Origin: Armatimonadota bacterium
GTDB lineage: Bacteria; Sysuimicrobiota; Sysuimicrobiia; Sysuimicrobiales; Sysuimicrobiaceae
Direction of reading: 5' to 3'
Length of the DNA stretch: 64,000 nucleotides
NCBI GenBank assembly: GCA_025060455.1
Contig: JANXBY010000025.1
Coordinates: forward strand, 4,867 to 68,866
In this document: piece after piece, positions 7,107 through 14,903 of the stretch
Layout of the letters: each line of letters starts with the position of its first letter
Numbering within the stretch: the stretch's first letter is position 1
Notes under the pieces: model-generated
What the model was told of the DNA's origin: nothing
Database searches by the model: none
The model's input: the letters and a program-made list of their open reading frames with translations, nothing else
Made by a program: the position numbers and the translations under genes

Positions 7107-8810
7107 GTGAGTCGGGTGCTGCGGGAGCTGCATGCCCGTGACTTCGTGCTGCTGGACGACGTGCGGGTGGAGTTCGGCCCGGGCCTGAACGTGCTCACGG
7201 GCGAGACGGGGGCCGGCAAGTCCATGCTGGTGGACGCTCTCGGCGCGATCCTGGGACAACGGACCCCTTCCGACGTGGTGCGTGGTGGGGCCACCTGCGC
7301 GCGGGTGGCCGCGGTGTTCGACCCGCGGCCGGCGCCGCGCCTGCGCGCCGTGGTGGAGGAGCTGGGCCTGCCGTGGGAAGACGACGGGTTGGTGCTGGTC
7401 CGGGAGGTGGGCGGCCGGTCCCGCGCCTACGTGAACGGCGAGCCCACCACGGTGGGCGTGCTGCGCCGTCTGGGATCTTTCCTCGCGGAGATCCACGGCC
7501 AGCACGAAGGGCAGCGGTTGCTGGAGCCTGCGTCTCACCGCGCGCTGCTGGACGAGTTCGGCGCGGACGAGGTGCTGTCGCGCCGTGCCGTGGTGGAGGC
7601 GCTCTTTGGCCGGTGGCGGGCGCTGCGGGAAGAGCTGCGAGCCCTGGACGTGGGCGAACGGGAGCGGGCCCAGCGGGTGGATCTGCTGCGGTTTCAGGTG
7701 TCCGAGATCGACGCGGTGCGACCTCGGCCCGGAGAGGTGGAGGAGCTCTCACAGCTACGCATCCGCCTACTGAACGCCGAGCGGCTGCGGGAGTCGGTGA
7801 CCGCGGCGTATGAAGCCCTGTACGGGGGCGAGGGGGCTGCCGCGGACCGTGTGGGGCGGGCTCTGGGGCTGCTGCGGCAGGCGGCGGCCTGGGACCCTGC
7901 CCTCGTTCCTGTGGCGGAGGCCCTGGAGGCGGTGGAAGCACAGCTCGTGGACCTTTCCCGGGAGGTGCGGGCGGCCGTGGAGCGCACCGAAGGTGACCCC
8001 GGCCGCCTGGACGAGGTGGAAGGCCGGATCGCGGCCCTCCGGAGCCTGCTGCGCAAGTACGGGGACACGGTGGAAGCGGTCCTGGACTACCGGGAACGAG
8101 TTGCGCGGGAGCTCGCCGTGCTGGAAAACGCGGACAGCCGGCGCGGGGAGGTGGAGCGGGAGCTGGGCCAGGTGGAAGCGCAGCTGGAGGCAGCCGTGGG
8201 AGAACTGTCTGCAGCCCGGGTCCAGGCGGCCCGCCGTCTGGAGAAGGCAGTGCTGCGCCACCTGCAGGACCTGGCCATGCCCGCCGCGCGGTTCAGGGTC
8301 CAGCTGGAGGCTTCGGAGGATCCCGAAGGGTTGCCGGTGGGAGGGCGTCGGCTTGCTGTGGGGCCGTGGGGAGCGGACCGGGTGGAGTTCCTGCTGTCCG
8401 CCAACCCAGGGGAACCCCCTCGGCCGCTGCATCGGGTGGCCTCCGGCGGGGAGCTGTCCCGCGTGATGCTGGCCCTGCGCACCGTCCTGGCCAGAGCGGA
8501 CCCTCCCGCGGTGATGGTGTTTGACGAGGTGGACGCGGGCGTCGGCGGCCGCACGGGCCACGTCATCGGGGCCAAGCTCGCCGAGCTCGCGGGGGTGTGT
8601 CAGGTGCTGTGCGTCACCCACCAGCCGCAGATCGCGGCGCTGGCGCACCACCACCTGGCGGTGCGGAAGGTCACCCAGCGCGGCAGGACCCGCATCGCGG
8701 TGGAGGTCCTGCAGGGCGAGGACCGGGTGGACGAGATCGCCCGCATGCTCGCCGGCCCCACACCTACGGAGACCGCCCGCCGCCACGCCCGCGAGTTGCT
8801 GAGGTTGTAG
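7107..8810 (+). CDS. recN: DNA repair protein RecN
   Basis: Walker A GETGAGKS, IHGQHE Q-loop, ASGGELSRVML signature, FDEVDAGVGG, VTHQPQIAA. Confidence 0.97.
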   Translation: MSRVLRELHARDFVLLDDVRVEFGPGLNVLTGETGAGKSMLVDALGAILGQRTPSDVVRGGATCARVAAVFDPRPAPRLRAVVEELGLPWEDDGLVLVREVGGRSRAYVNGEPTTVGVLRRLGSFLAEIHGQHEGQRLLEPASHRALLDEFGADEVLSRRAVVEALFGRWRALREELRALDVGERERAQRVDLLRFQVSEIDAVRPRPGEVEELSQLRIRLLNAERLRESVTAAYEALYGGEGAAADRVGRALGLLRQAAAWDPALVPVAEALEAVEAQLVDLSREVRAAVERTEGDPGRLDEVEGRIAALRSLLRKYGDTVEAVLDYRERVARELAVLENADSRRGEVERELGQVEAQLEAAVGELSAARVQAARRLEKAVLRHLQDLAMPAARFRVQLEASEDPEGLPVGGRRLAVGPWGADRVEFLLSANPGEPPRPLHRVASGGELSRVMLALRTVLARADPPAVMVFDEVDAGVGGRTGHVIGAKLAELAGVCQVLCVTHQPQIAALAHHHLAVRKVTQRGRTRIAVEVLQGEDRVDEIARMLAGPTPTETARRHARELLRL

Positions 8811-8843
8811 GCGGGTCCCCGCACCTTCGGGTGACGCAGACCG

Positions 8844-8866
8844 TTGACAGGCGTTATATATTATAA
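8844..8866 (+). promoter_or_regulatory. Promoter/operator patch upstream of gntR
   Basis: TTGACA at 8844-8849 followed by the AT-rich near-palindrome TTATATATTATAA (8854-8866), conspicuous in GC-rich DNA; -35/-10 spacing is not canonical. Confidence 0.5.
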
Positions 8867-9553
8867 GTGATACCAAGGTCCCAACGCGCCGTGGCGTCCA
8901 CCGCGCTACCCCGCAGCCTGGCCGAGCTGGCCTGGCTGGCGCTGCGGGAGGAAATCCTCACCGGCGAGCTGCCCCCGGGACGGCCCCTGCGGCTGCGCGA
9001 GCTGGCCGCTCGCCTGGGGATGAGCGTCATCCCGGTCCGGGAGGCGTTGCATCGGCTCCACCAGGAGGGCTTGGTGAGCCGCGAGGCCCAAAAGGGCGCC
9101 GTGGTCGCACCCCTCTCGGTGGAGGACATGGAGGACCTGTACCGGGTCCGGATCGAGCTGGAGGGGCTGGCCATCCAGCTGGCGTGCCAACGCTTCAACC
9201 GGGAACACTACCGTCGGCTTTCCGGCCTGCTGGACCAGTTCGTGGAGGCCTACGAAACCGGACAGGCACGGCTGGGCCGGGAGCTGCACCGCCGCTTCCA
9301 CCTCGAGCTGTACGCCCTGGCGGGCTCTCCCACCCTGGACCGCCTGGTCCCCCCGCTCCTCGACGCGGCGGAACGGTACCGGGTGATGTCCGTGGCGGAC
9401 CGCGGCGATCCCCGGCAGCGGCGGCAGGAACACCAGCGCATCCTGGACGCCTGCCTGAGCGGTGACGGCCAGCGGGCGCGCCGGGAGCTGGCCGAGCACC
9501 TGTCCCGCACCGTGGAGGTGGTGCGGGCGAAGTTGCGAGGAGGTGCGTGGTGA
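8867..9553 (+). CDS. GntR family regulator (HTH + FCD domain)
   Basis: LREEILTGELPPG..L....LA.RLGMSVIPVREAL..L..EG; FCD motif HRRFH...EHQRILDA. True start may be 8891. Confidence 0.92.
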   Translation: MIPRSQRAVASTALPRSLAELAWLALREEILTGELPPGRPLRLRELAARLGMSVIPVREALHRLHQEGLVSREAQKGAVVAPLSVEDMEDLYRVRIELEGLAIQLACQRFNREHYRRLSGLLDQFVEAYETGQARLGRELHRRFHLELYALAGSPTLDRLVPPLLDAAERYRVMSVADRGDPRQRRQEHQRILDACLSGDGQRARRELAEHLSRTVEVVRAKLRGGAW

Positions 9554-10443
9554 AGCTGGTCACGTTTGAGGTGGCAGGGCGTTCGAGGGTCGGCGTGGTC
9601 CGGGACGGGTGGGTGGTGAGCGTGGACGTCCCGGATATGCGCACCCTGTTCGAGCTGGGGGAGGAGGGGATGCGCCGGGCCCGGGAAGCCTCGGGGGAGC
9701 GTTTCCCCCTGGAGGCGGTACGACTGCGGGCGCCCATCGTGCCCAAGAAGTTCTTCCACACCGCGGGCAACTTCCGGGAGCACGCGGAGGAAGGGGAGAA
9801 GTCTCAGTGGGTCGCCCCCATCCTCCCGTGGATCGTGTTCTTCCAGAACGTGGACGCCATCATCGGTCCCGAGGATCCCATCATCTACCCGGAGCACCTC
9901 ACCCGGGAGCTGGACTACGAGTTGGAACTGGCGGTGGTGATCCGCAAGAGCGGGAAGCACTTCGGCCCGGAGGAGGCCTGGGATTACGTGGGCGGCTACG
10001 TGATCTTCAACGACATCACCGCCCGGGACATCCAGCGGCGCGAGATGGAGTCGAAGGTGTTCACCTTCTGCAAGTCCATCGACACCTTCTGCCCCCTCGG
10101 CCCGTGGATCGTCACGCCGGACGAGATTCCCGACCCGCACAACCTGCGCATGGAGCTGCGGGTGAACGGGCAGGTGCGCCAGAGTTCCTCCACCTCCCGC
10201 ATGTGGGTGACCATCCCGCAGGTGATCGCCCACTACTCCCCCATGGGCTACTCCGCGGGCGACGTGCTGTCGCTGGGGACGGTTTCCGGGGTGGCCGCGT
10301 TCCGGGAGGACCCGCAGGCGTACTACCTGAAGCCCGGGGACGTGGTGGAGGCGGAGATCGAGGGCATCGGGGTGCTGCGCAACCGCGTGATCTCGTGGCA
10401 GGAGGCGTACGGTCGTCCCGCGCCGCCCCCCGTCCGGTGGTGA
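9547..10443 (+). CDS. Fumarylacetoacetate hydrolase (FAH) family protein
   Basis: GNFREH, LDYELELAVVI, FNDITARDIQ, KSIDTFCPLGP, GDVLSLGT. Confidence 0.92.
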   Translation: MVKLVTFEVAGRSRVGVVRDGWVVSVDVPDMRTLFELGEEGMRRAREASGERFPLEAVRLRAPIVPKKFFHTAGNFREHAEEGEKSQWVAPILPWIVFFQNVDAIIGPEDPIIYPEHLTRELDYELELAVVIRKSGKHFGPEEAWDYVGGYVIFNDITARDIQRREMESKVFTFCKSIDTFCPLGPWIVTPDEIPDPHNLRMELRVNGQVRQSSSTSRMWVTIPQVIAHYSPMGYSAGDVLSLGTVSGVAAFREDPQAYYLKPGDVVEAEIEGIGVLRNRVISWQEAYGRPAPPPVRW

Positions 10444-10451
10444 GGTGAGCC

Positions 10452-11612
10452 GTGTTCTGGGTTGGGACGCTGAACCAAGAAGTGCTTCCGAGGGTGACGC
10501 AGCCGGTGGGGCTGTATGACACCACCCTCCGGGACGGAGAGCAGGCGGTGGGGGTGGTCCTGGGGGCGGACGAGAAGGTGGAGCTGGCGCGGCTGCTGGA
10601 CGAGGTGGGGGTGGACCGCATCGAGGCGGGATTCCCGCGGGTTTCGGAGGAGGACTTTGAGGCGGCGGCACGGATCGGGCGGGTGGGCTTGAGGGCGGAG
10701 GTGTGGGGGTTTGCACGGGCGTTGGTGGCCGACGTGGAGGCGGTGTTGCGGGCGGGGCTGGCGTCCACGGTGGTGGAGGCGCCAGTTTCAGAGGTGAAGC
10801 TGCGGGCGTTCGGGCTGACCGCGGAGGAGGTGCTGCGGCGGGTGGAGGAGGCGGTGGGGTTCGGGGCGCGGCAGGGGATGCGGGTGGCGTTCTTCGCGGT
10901 GGACGGGTCGCGGGCGGACCTGGGGTTTTTGCGGCGGGCGTACGAGGTCGCCCTGGGCGCCGGTGCGGCCGAGCTGGTGGTGGTGGACACGTTGGGGGTG
11001 TTGAGTCCTGCCGCGGCGGGACAGCTGGTTCGGCGAGTGCGGGGGTGGGTGGGGTCGGCGGTCCCTCTGCACTTCCACGGGCACAACGACTTCGGGCTAG
11101 CGACGGCGACGGCGCTGGCAGCGGTGGAGGCCGGGGTACGGTGGGTGCACGGCACGGTGGACGGGATGGGCGAACGGGCTGGCAACGCGGACCTGTTCCA
11201 GGTGGCGCTGGCGCTGGCGGGGCTGTACGGGAAGCCGACGGGGCTCCGGCTGGAGCGGGTCCAGGAGGTGTCGCGGCGGGTGCGGGAGCTGGCCGGGTAC
11301 TGTTTGGAGCCGTGGAAGCCGTTGGTCGGCGAGAACCTGTTCCGGCGGGAGACGGGAGCGGTGGCGGCGCAGTTCCACGTCCCGGAGGCCATCGAGCCGT
11401 ACGCGGCGGAGGTGGTGGGGGCGCGGCGGAGGGTGGTGCTGGGCAAGAAGAGCGGGGTGGCGTCCGTGCGGATCAAGTGTGACGAGCTCGGGCTTGTGGT
11501 GCCCGAGGAGGCGTACGGGGAGCTGCTGGCTCGGGTGAAGGAGCTGGCCATCCGCAAGCGGGGACTGGTCTCCGACGAGGAGTTCCGGACCCTGGTGGCT
11601 GAGGTGGTGTAG
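10452..11612 (+). CDS. Homocitrate/isopropylmalate synthase-like DRE-TIM metallolyase without regulatory domain
   Basis: YDTTLRDGEQ, IEAGFP, HFHGHNDFGLA, GMGERAGNA, LGKKSG. Confidence 0.88.
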   Translation: MFWVGTLNQEVLPRVTQPVGLYDTTLRDGEQAVGVVLGADEKVELARLLDEVGVDRIEAGFPRVSEEDFEAAARIGRVGLRAEVWGFARALVADVEAVLRAGLASTVVEAPVSEVKLRAFGLTAEEVLRRVEEAVGFGARQGMRVAFFAVDGSRADLGFLRRAYEVALGAGAAELVVVDTLGVLSPAAAGQLVRRVRGWVGSAVPLHFHGHNDFGLATATALAAVEAGVRWVHGTVDGMGERAGNADLFQVALALAGLYGKPTGLRLERVQEVSRRVRELAGYCLEPWKPLVGENLFRRETGAVAAQFHVPEAIEPYAAEVVGARRRVVLGKKSGVASVRIKCDELGLVVPEEAYGELLARVKELAIRKRGLVSDEEFRTLVAEVV

Positions 11613-11640
11613 GAGGATCCGGCGAAAGGAGGCGGGGACC

Positions 11641-12636
11641 ATGAGGAGGCTCGGGTGGTTGGTGACGGCGGCGGTGGTTCTGGCTCTGGCCGGAGGGCTG
11701 CAGGCCGCGCCGGCGCGGTGGAAGATCCGCATGGGTTACATACCCGTGGACTCCCACGCCGCGCAGTACATCGCTGCGGAGCGATACCTGCCCCAGGAGG
11801 GCTTCGAGGTGGAGCTCGTGCGGCTCCCGAGCGGGGCGGAGATCCTCTCCCAGGTGGCCATCGGACAGCTGCAGATCGGAGGGGGAGCCCTCGGGGCTGC
11901 GGCCTACAACGCGGTGGCCCAAGGACACCCGGTGAAGTTCGTGGCGCCCCTCCACAGCGGCTTTGTGGAGGACTACTTCACGGTGCGCCGGGCCATCTGG
12001 GGTAGCGAGATCAACCGGATCGCCCAGCTGCGGGGCAAGCCCGTGGCCATCAATGCCCGCGGCGTGGCCACGGAGTACATGCTGGACCGGGCCCTGGCCA
12101 CCGACGGGCTGGCCGTGGAGGACGTGGACCTGAAGACCATGCCGTTCCCCGACATGGTGCCTGCCCTGGAGAGCGGTGCCATCTGGGCCGGCATCGTGTC
12201 CGAGCCCTTCCCCACCATCGCGGAGGACCGCGGGGTGGGCGTGCGGCCCCTCCGCAAGCCCCCGGGAGCGCGGCCGTTCCCCATCACGTTCGTGTTCATC
12301 AACACCGACTGGGCCAGGCAGAACCCGCAGGCGGCCCAGCGGTTCGTGGTGGCCCACGTGAAAGCGGCCCGGGACCTGGCGCTGGACAACGGCTGGAAGC
12401 GGGAGGACAACCTGCAGCTGATGGTCAAGTACACGGGTGCCCGGATCGAGCTGCTGCGCCGGGCCCGCCCGCACTACCTGGATCCCAACCTGGCGGTGAA
12501 CCTGCGGGCTCTGGAGGACCAGCAGAAGTTCTACCTGCGCCGCGGTTACCTCACCTACCGGGAGCCCCTGCCCCTGGAGCGGGTCTTCGACTTTAGCTAC
12601 CTGCACGCGGCCCTCCGGGAGCTGGGCCGCCGGTGA
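11641..12636 (+). CDS. ABC substrate-binding protein, NMT1/SsuA/TauA-like
   Basis: Signal peptide (ALAGGLQA), YIAAERYL..EGFEVELV, QLRGKPVAIN, MPFPDMVPALESG. Confidence 0.82.
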   Translation: MRRLGWLVTAAVVLALAGGLQAAPARWKIRMGYIPVDSHAAQYIAAERYLPQEGFEVELVRLPSGAEILSQVAIGQLQIGGGALGAAAYNAVAQGHPVKFVAPLHSGFVEDYFTVRRAIWGSEINRIAQLRGKPVAINARGVATEYMLDRALATDGLAVEDVDLKTMPFPDMVPALESGAIWAGIVSEPFPTIAEDRGVGVRPLRKPPGARPFPITFVFINTDWARQNPQAAQRFVVAHVKAARDLALDNGWKREDNLQLMVKYTGARIELLRRARPHYLDPNLAVNLRALEDQQKFYLRRGYLTYREPLPLERVFDFSYLHAALRELGRR

Positions 12637-12640
12637 AGGG

Positions 12641-13411
12641 ATGGCCGGACGGTTGGAAGGGCGCTTCGCGCTGGTGACGGGGGCGGGCCGGGGCCTCGGC
12701 AGCGCCATCGCTCTGGGCCTGGCCCGGGAGGGCGCGCACGTGGCGGTGCACTACCGACGGTCCGCAGATGGGGCCGAGGCGGTGGCGAGGACCATCCGGG
12801 AGATGGGCCGGGAGAGCTTCACGGTCCAGGGAGACATCGCCCGCTGGGACGACGTGCGGCGGGTGGCCGACGAGGTGTTCGGACGGTTCGGCCGGCTGGA
12901 CGTGTTGGTGAACAACGCGGGGGATATGGCCGCGGACCAGATGTCGTGGCGGGACCTGCGGGAGGAGGTGCTCGACCGCATCCTCCTGGTGGACGTGAAG
13001 GGCACGCAGCTCATGATCCACGAGGTGGGTTCGCGGATGTTGGAGCAGGGGTCGGGTGCCATCGTAAACATCGGGTCCCGCGTGGTGGTCACCGGGAGCC
13101 CCAGGGCGCCCCAGTACGCGGCGGCCAAGTACGCCATCATCGGGCTGACGAAGTCCTACGCGCGGGCCTTCGCCCCCGCGGTACGGGTGAACGCGGTGGG
13201 GCCTGGGTTCATCGAGACCGAGGCCACCCTGCAGCGCGAGGACTGGCGTACGGGCCGGCGGGAAGAGATCTTGAGCCAGACGCCCCTGCGGCGGATCGCC
13301 ACGCCGGACGACGTAGTCCCGGCGGTGGCGTTCCTGGCTAGCGACGACGCACGCCACATCACCGGTGCGTTCCTCCTGTGCGACGGCGGGATGAGCATGG
13401 TGGGCGCGTAG
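12641..13411 (+). CDS. Short-chain dehydrogenase/reductase (classical SDR)
   Basis: TGAGRGLG, LVNNAG, IVNIGS, YAAAK catalytic YxxxK, VRVNAVGPG. Confidence 0.94.
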   Translation: MAGRLEGRFALVTGAGRGLGSAIALGLAREGAHVAVHYRRSADGAEAVARTIREMGRESFTVQGDIARWDDVRRVADEVFGRFGRLDVLVNNAGDMAADQMSWRDLREEVLDRILLVDVKGTQLMIHEVGSRMLEQGSGAIVNIGSRVVVTGSPRAPQYAAAKYAIIGLTKSYARAFAPAVRVNAVGPGFIETEATLQREDWRTGRREEILSQTPLRRIATPDDVVPAVAFLASDDARHITGAFLLCDGGMSMVGA

Positions 13412-13557
13412 ACGCACCCGGGTCCGCCCGCGCGCCGGCAGGCCCGGGCGGGCCGCAGCGGGCCTGGGTCCGTGGCGTCCGGGACGGCACCATCCTAAGG
13501 TAGGGGCTCAGCCAGGGAGCGCCCGGCAGGGTGTGGCGGGCGTAAGAGGCGACGCCC

Positions 13558-13840
13558 TTAAGCGGTCCACGGGCACCGTTGCCATACAGTCCCCGTGCAG
13601 GTGGGGCTCCGTACTGAGACCGGTGGAGCCCACAAAGCCCACCAGGGTACCGGCGTGCACCGCCTGGCCGGACGCGAACGTGGGCCAGGTGGAGCTAGGA
13701 ACTGAACACGCCCGCTCCGTGGTCCACGATCACCGTGTTGCCGCCAAGGGGGAGCTGCTCCGGCAACACCGACGCCCCGTTGGGCCGCGCGCACCGGGGT
13801 GCCCGCGACCGCCGCGGTGGCTACAAACCCCGCCATGCGC
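13558..13840 (-). pseudogene. Degraded M23 family peptidase (murein endopeptidase) remnant
   Basis: Minus-strand pieces in different frames: GTPVRAAQRGV / LPLGGNTVIVDHGAGVFSS*LHL / GQAVHAGTLVGFVGSTGLSTEPHLH; in-frame TAG at 13695-13697. Confidence 0.85.
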
Positions 13841-14000
13841 CCAGCAAGTGGCATCGAGGACCCTGCCACGGAAGCCGGCGTAGCTCCGGGCCCCTCAGAA
13901 CACCCCTTCACCGCGTCCTCCCTCCTGGCGGCCGCACGAGCCGGATCCCAGCACCTGTGTCACGCTCCGCCCGTTCCCAGTAGGGCCGCGGGGCGCGCGT

Positions 14001-14903
14001 GTGGCAACATGGAACCCAGTTGTGGTGACCGGGGAGCTTTTCGGACTGCTGGCAGCAGCAGCCTTTGCCCTGGCCACGGTGCTTTCGCGCCGCTTCATGG
14101 TGGGGCCGAAGCCCGTGGCGCCGGAGGCCGGCGTGTTTGTGAGCATCGTCACCAACGTGGTCGTGTTTTCCCTTTTGGCCGCGCTGGAAGCAGGCCGCGG
14201 TTCCTCCCCGCCGCTCACGGGCCGGTCCCTCTTGTACTTCGTCCTGGGAGGGCTGTGTGGGACGGTAGCCGGGCGGAACCTGTCCTACCAGAGCGTGCTC
14301 CGGATCGGGCCGTCCCGGTCCACGGCCATCCGGCTGTCCAACACGCTGTTTGCAGCCCTCATCGGGCTTGCGGTCCTGCGGGAGCTGCCCCGACCAGGCC
14401 AGCTGGCCGGCGCGGTGCTCATCACGGTGGGGCTGTGGCTCGTGCTGCGGGAGCGGGCGTCCGGACCTGAGGGCCGCCCAGACCCCGCGGGCGCGCTGCT
14501 GGCCGTCGGCGGAGCCGTTGGGTTCGCCCTGGGCGACACCTTCCGGAGAGCAGGCCTCCAGATCACCCCGGCACCGTTTCTGGGGGCCGCCGTGGGTGCG
14601 TGCACCGCCCTGCTGGTGCAGACCGGCTGGCTGGCCCTGCGGCACCGTCCGGCGGGGTGGGACCGGCCGTGGAGGTTGGACGTCCTGGCAAGCGCCATTG
14701 CCAATACCGCGGCCATCCTCCTCCTGTTCCTCGGGCTCCAGCGCAGTCCGGTGGCCAACGTGGCGGTGCTGTACAACCTACAGGTGCTGCTCGTGATCCT
14801 CCTGAGCCGTTGGATGCTGCGGGGAGACGAGCGGGTGGGTGCAGGGCTGGTGGTGGGAAGCGTGGTGTGCGTGGTGGGCACCGCGGCGGTGCTGTTTGGG
14901 TAG
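14001..14903 (+). CDS. DMT/EamA family transporter
   Basis: About 10 hydrophobic segments in two EamA repeats (YQSVLRIGPSRST; FLGLQRSPVANVA). Start may be 14022/14025. Confidence 0.88.
   Translation: MATWNPVVVTGELFGLLAAAAFALATVLSRRFMVGPKPVAPEAGVFVSIVTNVVVFSLLAALEAGRGSSPPLTGRSLLYFVLGGLCGTVAGRNLSYQSVLRIGPSRSTAIRLSNTLFAALIGLAVLRELPRPGQLAGAVLITVGLWLVLRERASGPEGRPDPAGALLAVGGAVGFALGDTFRRAGLQITPAPFLGAAVGACTALLVQTGWLALRHRPAGWDRPWRLDVLASAIANTAAILLLFLGLQRSPVANVAVLYNLQVLLVILLSRWMLRGDERVGAGLVVGSVVCVVGTAAVLFG

Follow-up and report, generated by a model that had tools for sequence, protein, structure and literature searches.

A conserved FAH/DRE-TIM gene pair without the Claisen triad forms the core of an accessory cassette associated with organic-anion uptake in an Armatimonadota bacterium

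A 64,000-nucleotide (nt) stretch of an Armatimonadota genome (the window; contig JANXBY010000025.1 of assembly GCA_025060455.1) carries a five-gene cassette that encodes a GntR-family regulator, an FAH-family metalloenzyme, a DRE-TIM metallolyase related to homocitrate synthase (HCS) and isopropylmalate synthase (IPMS), a solute-binding protein and a short-chain dehydrogenase/reductase (SDR). The evidence firmly supports a real and conserved accessory operon with an orphan FAH/DRE-TIM pair at its core, an association of the cassette with the uptake of organic anions, and the lack of any relation to leucine or lysine synthesis. The DRE-TIM enzyme has lost the residues on which HCS-type synthases depend for the use of acetyl-coenzyme A (acetyl-CoA), and it therefore probably degrades an imported organic acid, by a chemistry that has not been described. 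The features of the locus are as follows.

8844..8872, + strand: putative promoter/operator patch, with TTGACA at 8844-8849, a palindrome at 8854-8866, an overlapping TATAAG -10-like hexamer and then a conserved GTGATAC
8867..9553, + strand: GntR-family regulator with an FCD effector domain, FadR subfamily (Pfam GntR PF00392, 60.1 bits; FCD PF07729, 95.4 bits)
9550..10443, + strand: FAH-family metalloenzyme of the FAHD1/YisK/LRA6 type, predicted acylpyruvate hydrolase or oxaloacetate-type decarboxylase (PF01557, 233 bits)
10452..11612, + strand: DRE-TIM metallolyase of an HCS/IPMS-related clade, 386 amino acids, HMGL-like (206.7 bits) and HCS_D2, without LeuA_dimer
11641..12636, + strand: NMT1/SsuA-like (NitT/TauT-type) solute-binding protein with a signal-like N-terminus (Pfam NMT1_2, 76.9 bits; also NMT1)
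12641..13411, + strand: classical FabG-like SDR oxidoreductase (adh_short; adh_short_C2, 185.9 bits)
8815..13560, no strand assigned: extent of the accessory cassette, from recN to an M23-peptidase remnant (blastn against same-genus genomes without the cassette)

The predicted structure of the DRE-TIM protein is a TIM barrel (pLDDT 82.6), the fold neighbors of which are MAMS, HCS and IPMS. The superfamily signature is complete, with R27-D28 in YDTTLRDGEQ and H209/H211 in HFHGHND, and it is invariant in 77 sequences. Like the solved HCS, IPMS and MAMS enzymes (6ktq, 6e1j, 3rmj and 2ztj; 31–37% identity), the window protein combines the TIM barrel with an HCS post-barrel subdomain and contains RDGEQ, HxH and the substrate-binding Thr. 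Unlike these enzymes, it has no catalytic triad, an Ala at the specificity position and no regulatory domain, and its gene is linked to FAH rather than to aconitase or dehydrogenase genes.

The active site was read from three phmmer alignments (SaHCS 6ktq, BjMAMS 6e1j and NmIPMS 3rmj) and two MAFFT alignments with paralogs, all of which agree. The site for the metal and the 2-oxo acid is retained and invariant (R27, D28, Q31, T180, H209 and H211). The Claisen triad is gone: MAMS Glu227 corresponds to V150, His388 to a one-residue deletion (or V304) and Tyr399 to I314. This loss holds in all 77 family members, and the E, H and Y are kept by all the LeuA, NifV and CimA paralogs of the same alignment. 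In MAMS, the substitutions E227A/D, H388A/D/E/Q and Y399S abolish the Claisen activity, and the triad has roles in the enolization of acetyl-CoA (PMC11532901). The original prediction called the enzyme homocitrate-synthase-like, a label that overstates the likeness given that the acetyl-CoA-enolizing triad is absent. Where HCS has an Arg and IPMS and MAMS have a Glu, the window protein has Ala146, which is invariant in the clade and aligns to the Arg of SaHCS 6ktq. In HCS, the Arg of V-R-F-T/S-x-E-D binds the distal carboxylate of 2-oxoglutarate. Ala146 is flanked by the invariant Phe148 and Val150, so that the side-chain pocket is predicted to be apolar (pocket positions defined from PMC8468904). 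The clade-specific invariants H207, W288, K289, R299, Q307 and H309 lie mostly in the segment 286–324, which AlphaFold models at pLDDT < 50 and the equivalent of which caps the active site of the partner in solved dimers.

The assignment outside the known synthases is consistent with profile scores and phylogeny. The window protein falls short of the cut-offs of the models for NifV (TIGR02660, 302.7 against 462.9), LysS (TIGR02146, 246.1 against 413.55), leuA_bact (225.5 against 598.7), CimA (148 against 450) and the HOA aldolase DmpG/BphI (TIGR03217, 72.8 against 286). As a control, the true NifV proteins of two carriers (G001 and G002) score 500–505, and the true NifV, LeuA and CimA proteins of other carriers pass the cut-offs. 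The LeuA regulatory domain PF08502 is absent from the 386-residue protein, in line with the earlier claim that the enzyme has no regulatory domain. The catalytic His of the DmpG motif RDGxH is Gln31, and no DmpF gene adjoins. In a FastTree phylogeny of 47 sequences, the FAH-linked DRE-TIM proteins are monophyletic (SH-like support 0.999), and a sister clade (0.975) is also triad-less, whereas the position of both triad-less clades relative to NifV has a support of only 0.095. The phylogeny against HCS, IPMS, CimA and HOA that had been proposed as a check thus leaves the enzyme in a clade of its own, outside bona fide HCS, IPMS and CimA. In the Atlas, the only clusters matched by the DRE-TIM protein bear the generic name 'homocitrate synthase'. 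The publicly available gene calls, P0001 and that of the Atlas, begin the protein at residue 15; the start at 10452 is favored because W3 and N8, upstream of that residue, are invariant across phyla.

The sister clade includes a paralog from the same genome, a triad-less HCS-like protein of 415 amino acids (40% identical) that is encoded on the minus strand of contig C48 (L090:655-5771). Its gene is flanked by those for a D-2-hydroxyacid dehydrogenase and a small cupin, and the tricarboxylate-transporter genes TctC and TctA come next; the sister clade is also found in Rhodoplanes (L101). The C48 locus looks like another module of an oxidoreductase, a DRE-TIM enzyme and a carboxylate transporter.

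The pairing with FAH is conserved well beyond the window. At least 453 relatives of the DRE-TIM protein emerged when one genome per species was scanned, and the contexts were counted in the best 80, which are 56–67% identical to it. These come from at least four phyla and include Gaiellales/Thermoleophilia, Acidobacteriota, Bradyrhizobium, Rhodoplanes, Burkholderiales, Sulfuritalea and Bacillota-labeled metagenome-assembled genomes. An FAH ortholog (64–77% identical) lies upstream on the same strand, at a distance of 42 to 2467 nt, in 71 of the 80 loci, so that the cluster is indeed conserved outside the window; of the nine exceptions, seven offer less than 700 nt of upstream sequence. The loci take two forms. 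The extended islands of Actinomycetota and Acidobacteriota encode an LLM oxidoreductase, an M20 deacylase, FAH, sometimes a VOC protein, a creatinase-like M24 protein, the DRE-TIM enzyme, PanE-type reductases and a second M24 protein, and the order LLM-M20-FAH-(VOC)-M24-DRE-TIM-PanE-M24 recurs in dozens of loci; CrtI-like, TDO-like and Liv-type ABC genes are variable. The minimal modules consist of FAH, DRE-TIM and SDR genes with a GntR, LysR or IclR regulator and an NMT1-type ABC, TRAP, MFS or CitMHS transporter, often followed by crotonases. The window cassette shares the orthologous FAH and DRE-TIM genes with the extended islands of Gaiellales and Acidobacteriota, adds an SDR, a binding protein and a GntR regulator to this core pair, and lacks the hydrolases, LLM and PanE genes, so that it represents the minimal form of the system. 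Its SDR (58% identity) and regulator (60%) are orthologous to those of other minimal modules.

Across the loci, the recurrent third partner is a hydroxyacid/oxoacid oxidoreductase, either an SDR, a PanE-type protein or, in the sister clade, a D-2-hydroxyacid dehydrogenase, and carboxylate transporters (TRAP, CitMHS, MFS or NMT1-type ABC) recur beside the module. In one acidobacterial-type locus (L082:1-6728), the island is preceded by genes for two class-III aminotransferases, two aldehyde dehydrogenases and an amino-acid permease, which would fit a substrate from which an omega-amino acid, for example beta-alanine or gamma-aminobutyrate (GABA), is released. A search of the literature on the pairing of FAH with HCS/IPMS-like enzymes and on DRE-TIM functions found no described pathway.

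The closest solved relatives of the FAH enzyme are eaFAH (6iym), 8sky and LRA6 (8gsr). The protein contains the FAA_hydrolase domain together with the dyad and the metal triad of the FAHD1 type, and the residues invariant in 24 orthologs are the His78/Glu81 dyad, the Glu124/Glu126/Asp155 metal site, Arg159, Gln162, Lys175 and Thr244. A His/Glu dyad combined with a Glu-Glu-Asp site is the signature of C-C hydrolases and decarboxylases in the FAH family (PMC13669639), and on these residues the acylpyruvase/oxaloacetate-decarboxylase site of the enzyme is complete. The top NCBIfam model is LRA6 NF053535, with a score of 158.8 against a cut-off of 500, and the HpaG C-terminal model scores 139 against 276.4. 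FAHD1, YisK and Cg1458 are alike in having an N-terminal small domain, an FAH domain and all the catalytic and metal residues, including the Gln linked to decarboxylation; the window enzyme differs from them in its sequence (at most ~40% identity, as implied by the scores), its fixed linkage to DRE-TIM and its conserved, clade-specific C-terminal tail (W-x-E-A-Y-G...VRW). This tail and the conserved N-terminus of the DRE-TIM protein prompted a prediction of a complex between the two enzymes, which gave a score of 0.00 and provides no evidence either way.

The five genes are co-directional and tightly spaced behind the AT-rich patch, as had been described, with intergenic spacings of -4, 8, 28 and 4 nt; the GTG start of FAH overlaps the TGA stop of the regulator by 4 nt. 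The FAH reading frame, earlier placed at 9609, is 9547/9550-10443. No credible terminator was found, and the hairpin after the SDR gene folds like shuffled sequence (z = -0.01). Upstream of the cassette is recN (7107-8810; TIGR00634, 540 bits) and downstream is an EamA transporter gene (14001-14903).

The cassette is accessory and corresponds to a clean indel, with recN on one side and an M23 peptidase gene on the other. In two genomes of the genus that lack it, recN, the EamA gene and the genes downstream of the latter occur in the same order, and in G491 (L122) blastn places recN ~125 bp from a segment homologous to window 13591-13803, the M23-peptidase segment. The DRE-TIM protein occurs in three of the 94 genomes of the phylum sample, all of one genus (three of its eight genomes, including that of the window), and in one of 401 Pseudomonadota genomes, which is the source of the query itself. 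No flanking repeats that would mark an insertion mechanism were found, and there were no plasmid matches at E <= 1e-60. Window 13560-13990 contains only fragments of the 300-residue M23 peptidase gene of relatives (L087:8980-9882), and the gene appears truncated. The recN ortholog of the same-genus genome G491 (C8:74805-76496; L122) carries one in-frame TAG.

The regulator has an N-terminal winged-helix GntR domain, for which DNA binding is predicted, and a C-terminal FCD domain, and it shares 60% identity with its counterpart next to the module in L124. The region 8847-8877 holds the most AT-rich 20-mer of the window (17 of 20 positions A/T, against a genome of 70% GC; the G+C content of the window is likewise about 70%). 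Within it lies, at 8854-8866, a perfect palindrome (TTATA-TAT-TATAA) with no second copy in the 2.26-Mb genome. It is identical in L081, L083 and L086 and has one mismatch in L087, in each case upstream of the orthologous regulator and within spacers that have otherwise diverged. The palindrome is thus a candidate GntR operator. A TATAAG hexamer overlaps it, with TTGACA 12 nt upstream. In the near-identical strain L081, and also in L087, the regulator starts at an ATG that is AGG in the window (8876-8878); the start must therefore be GTG 8867 or GTG 8891, unless the assembly is in error.

No NitT/TauT-type permease was found on the contig of the window, and the absence of a permease in the window itself agrees with the original prediction of an orphan binding protein. 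The orphan status does not hold for the genome, since a paralog with 78% identity (C63:2443-3360) directly follows an ABC ATPase and two permeases. The window protein most likely shares this C63 transporter. It scores 86.8 with the SsuA_fam model against a cut-off of 163.5, and the solved SsuA and NrtA are only remote relatives. Complete NMT1-type transporters adjoin the module in L088, L124 and L001, but their binding proteins are only ~25% identical to that of the window; the type of transporter recurs across loci and the binding protein itself does not. After the paralog, the same region of C63 (L089:1-9000) encodes a 1183-residue indolepyruvate:ferredoxin-oxidoreductase-like protein (POR + DUF6537) and then another permease and NMT1 binding protein, neighbors that hint at 2-oxo or aryl acids as the ligands of this family of binding proteins. 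C63 also carries, further along, a true aldolase-dehydrogenase pair, DmpG/DmpF. The SDR contains VTGAGRGLG, VNNAG and YAAAK, as classical SDRs do, and its best PDB matches are FabG; orthologs with 58–63% identity immediately follow the pair in proteobacterial and in Bacillota-like loci.

On these grounds we tentatively favor, at somewhat less than even confidence, a model in which the cassette serves the use of an imported organic acid, is probably repressed by GntR and carries out CoA-free C-C chemistry on a metal-chelated 2-oxo acid. The FCD-type GntR would bind the unique palindrome over its own promoter until a carboxylate effector releases it, and the secreted NMT1-type protein would hand the anion to an ABC transporter whose genes lie at another site of the genome. 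The three enzymes would share one 2-oxo-acid scaffold, which may be a 4-hydroxy-2-oxo acid, a 2,4-dioxo acid or a substituted oxaloacetate. The SDR, in whose place other lineages have a PanE-type reductase, would oxidize a hydroxyl group, and FAH would cleave or decarboxylate the resulting beta-dicarbonyl by means of a His/Glu-activated water and an Mg/Mn site. The DRE-TIM enzyme would hold the 2-oxo acid on its metal and make or break a C-C bond without the canonical enolization of acetyl-CoA, and for this reason we propose that it acts as an aldolase or lyase and not as a homocitrate or isopropylmalate synthase. The products would be pyruvate or another 2-oxo acid and a small acid or aldehyde. 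In this scheme, we infer each of repression, catabolic direction, CoA independence, step order and substrate class.

Two known systems provide partial precedents. In the meta-cleavage pathways, an FAH-fold hydratase and a DRE-TIM aldolase act around 4-hydroxy-2-oxovalerate. The pairs formed by MhpD/DmpE and DmpG/BphI/HsaF thus combine the same two superfamilies, both chelate a 2-oxo acid on a divalent metal, and DmpG shows that a DRE-TIM enzyme next to an FAH-fold one can cleave a C-C bond without CoA. Unlike these pairs, the window encodes other subfamilies of both enzymes, with no DmpG communication domain, Gln31 in place of the His and no acylating aldehyde dehydrogenase. In the L-rhamnose and L-fucose routes, an SDR and an FAH enzyme (LRA5/LRA6) act on 4-hydroxy-2-oxo and then 2,4-dioxo acids. 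The resemblance lies in an SDR together with a FAHD1-type enzyme with the His/Glu dyad (8gsr), LRA6 releasing pyruvate from the 2,4-dioxo acid; unlike this route, the window has no sugar dehydrogenase, lactonase or dehydratase genes, and a DRE-TIM enzyme is foreign to the LRA routes.

Several observations weigh against the CoA-free scheme. No substrate, product or enzyme activity is known for members of either clade, and an aldolase and an SDR-FAH branch on the same scaffold would be partly redundant. Because the segment 286–324 is modeled with such low confidence, no geometry backs the proposal. H207, K289, R299, Q307 and H309 share the active-site segment of the lost triad and could replace the base, which makes acetyl-CoA chemistry possible. 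The 12-nt spacing of the promoter hexamers is poor, and a scan for sigma-70 consensus called no promoter. Enoyl-CoA hydratase (ECH) genes directly follow the SDR in at least five loci (L016, L040, L072, L124 and L126), and CoA ligases are encoded nearby in L084 and L125, hinting at thioester chemistry near the module.

These ECH and CoA-ligase genes also speak for a different account, to which we give a minority but substantial weight, in which the DRE-TIM enzyme condenses acetyl-CoA with a 2-oxo acid, or cleaves an alkylmalyl-CoA, by a non-canonical base such as His309. The SDR and FAH would then act as a 'split isopropylmalate dehydrogenase', the former oxidizing a substituted malate and the latter decarboxylating the substituted oxaloacetate, and crotonases, where present, would dehydrate or rehydrate the CoA ester. 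The role of the module would then be to extend or shorten a 2-oxo acid, or else to break down an alkyl-substituted dicarboxylate. The nearest folds and sequences are indeed acetyl-CoA-dependent synthases, FAHD1-type enzymes decarboxylate oxaloacetate, new invariant His and Arg residues are found in the cap segment, and RDGEQ is invariant, including the Gln next to the CoA thiol in MAMS (PMC11532901). However, the whole Glu-His-Tyr triad is replaced, whereas single substitutions in MAMS already abolish or cripple the activity (PMC11532901), and the sister clade lacks not only the triad but also His309. The ECH genes are only ~35% identical between lineages and hence not orthologous, for which reason they are not counted as core, and they are absent from the window cassette and from the actinobacterial and acidobacterial islands; nor does any aconitase-type isomerase accompany the module.

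A genuine homocitrate, isopropylmalate or citramalate synthase for amino-acid or cofactor biosynthesis, placed beside unrelated genes by chance, is very improbable. The HMGL-like and HCS_D2 architecture, the top NCBIfam matches (IPMS and HCS models) and the automatic database names 'isopropylmalate/homocitrate/citramalate synthase' would agree with it, but the scores lie far below every equivalog cut-off (NifV, LysS, leuA_bact and CimA), the catalytic triad is lost and the HCS Arg/IPMS Glu position is Ala146. Moreover, five of the eight genomes of the genus lack the gene, and its conserved linkage to FAH extends across phyla. Six HMGL-like genes are present in the genome, and a canonical leuA-leuC-cimA-leuB set is found elsewhere, on contig C32, where genes for a 516-residue LeuA, an aconitase-type LeuC, a CimA-like protein and LeuB stand together. 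On the contig of the window there is no gene of the aconitase or Iso_dh family, such genes being present only on other contigs, which bears out the earlier remark that leucine/lysine aconitase and dehydrogenase neighbors are missing. The original prediction of a catabolic route instead of amino-acid biosynthesis is therefore supported, its negative part by the C32 set and the missed cut-offs, and the gene contexts fit the uptake and breakdown of organic anions; the catabolic direction is still something that we infer.

It is also conceivable, though improbable, that the pair is the terminal module of one orphan pathway with lineage-specific upstream steps, for instance from an amide- or amidine-bearing amino-acid-like compound, of which the window lineage would import a late intermediate. 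The example is based on the M24 and M20 hydrolases, LLM oxidoreductase and PanE reductases of Actinomycetota and Acidobacteriota, and a speculative candidate is the catabolism of pantothenate or pantoate, for which a literature search turned up no known genes. The recurrence of the extended islands in dozens of loci is consistent with this view, as are the PanE-type proteins, which pass the apbA_panE subfamily cut-off, and the single locus with added beta-alanine-type aminotransferase and aldehyde dehydrogenase genes; one common intermediate is suggested because both core enzymes, including their pocket residues, are highly conserved. The identity of pantothenase is still unknown (PMC10393543). 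On the other hand, none of these enzymes has been tied to pantoate, the classical pantoate route cannot give both FAH and DRE-TIM necessary roles, the window carries an SDR and no PanE homolog, and the TDO-like, CrtI-like and other associated genes vary by locus.

Returning to the CoA-free scheme, a broader and more speculative form of it, which we regard as rather unlikely, is that both triad-less clades represent a switch within the HCS/IPMS lineage from Claisen to CoA-free aldol or lyase chemistry and, with a FAHD1-type enzyme, form the common end-module of an undescribed catabolic pathway that is widespread among soil Actinomycetota and Acidobacteriota, maybe a classical 'orphan' route, for instance that of pantothenate or pantoate.

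For the family, the consequence concerns thousands of proteins of the clade that are automatically named isopropylmalate, homocitrate or citramalate synthase, or even homoaconitate hydratase; these proteins lack the defining residues, and the names are therefore probably wrong. Gene islands of abundant, uncultured soil bacteria have the FAH/DRE-TIM pair as their invariant core, and the window presents the smallest self-contained version, with a regulator, a binding protein and three enzymes. What the window newly contributes is this minimal form, the loss of the Claisen triad, an explanation for the orphan binding protein and a putative operator. Cultured carriers exist (Bradyrhizobium manausense BR 3351 and Rhodoplanes serenus DSM 18633). 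An annotation problem thereby becomes tractable, and the reward may be a new type of reaction in a textbook enzyme family together with a new catabolic route.

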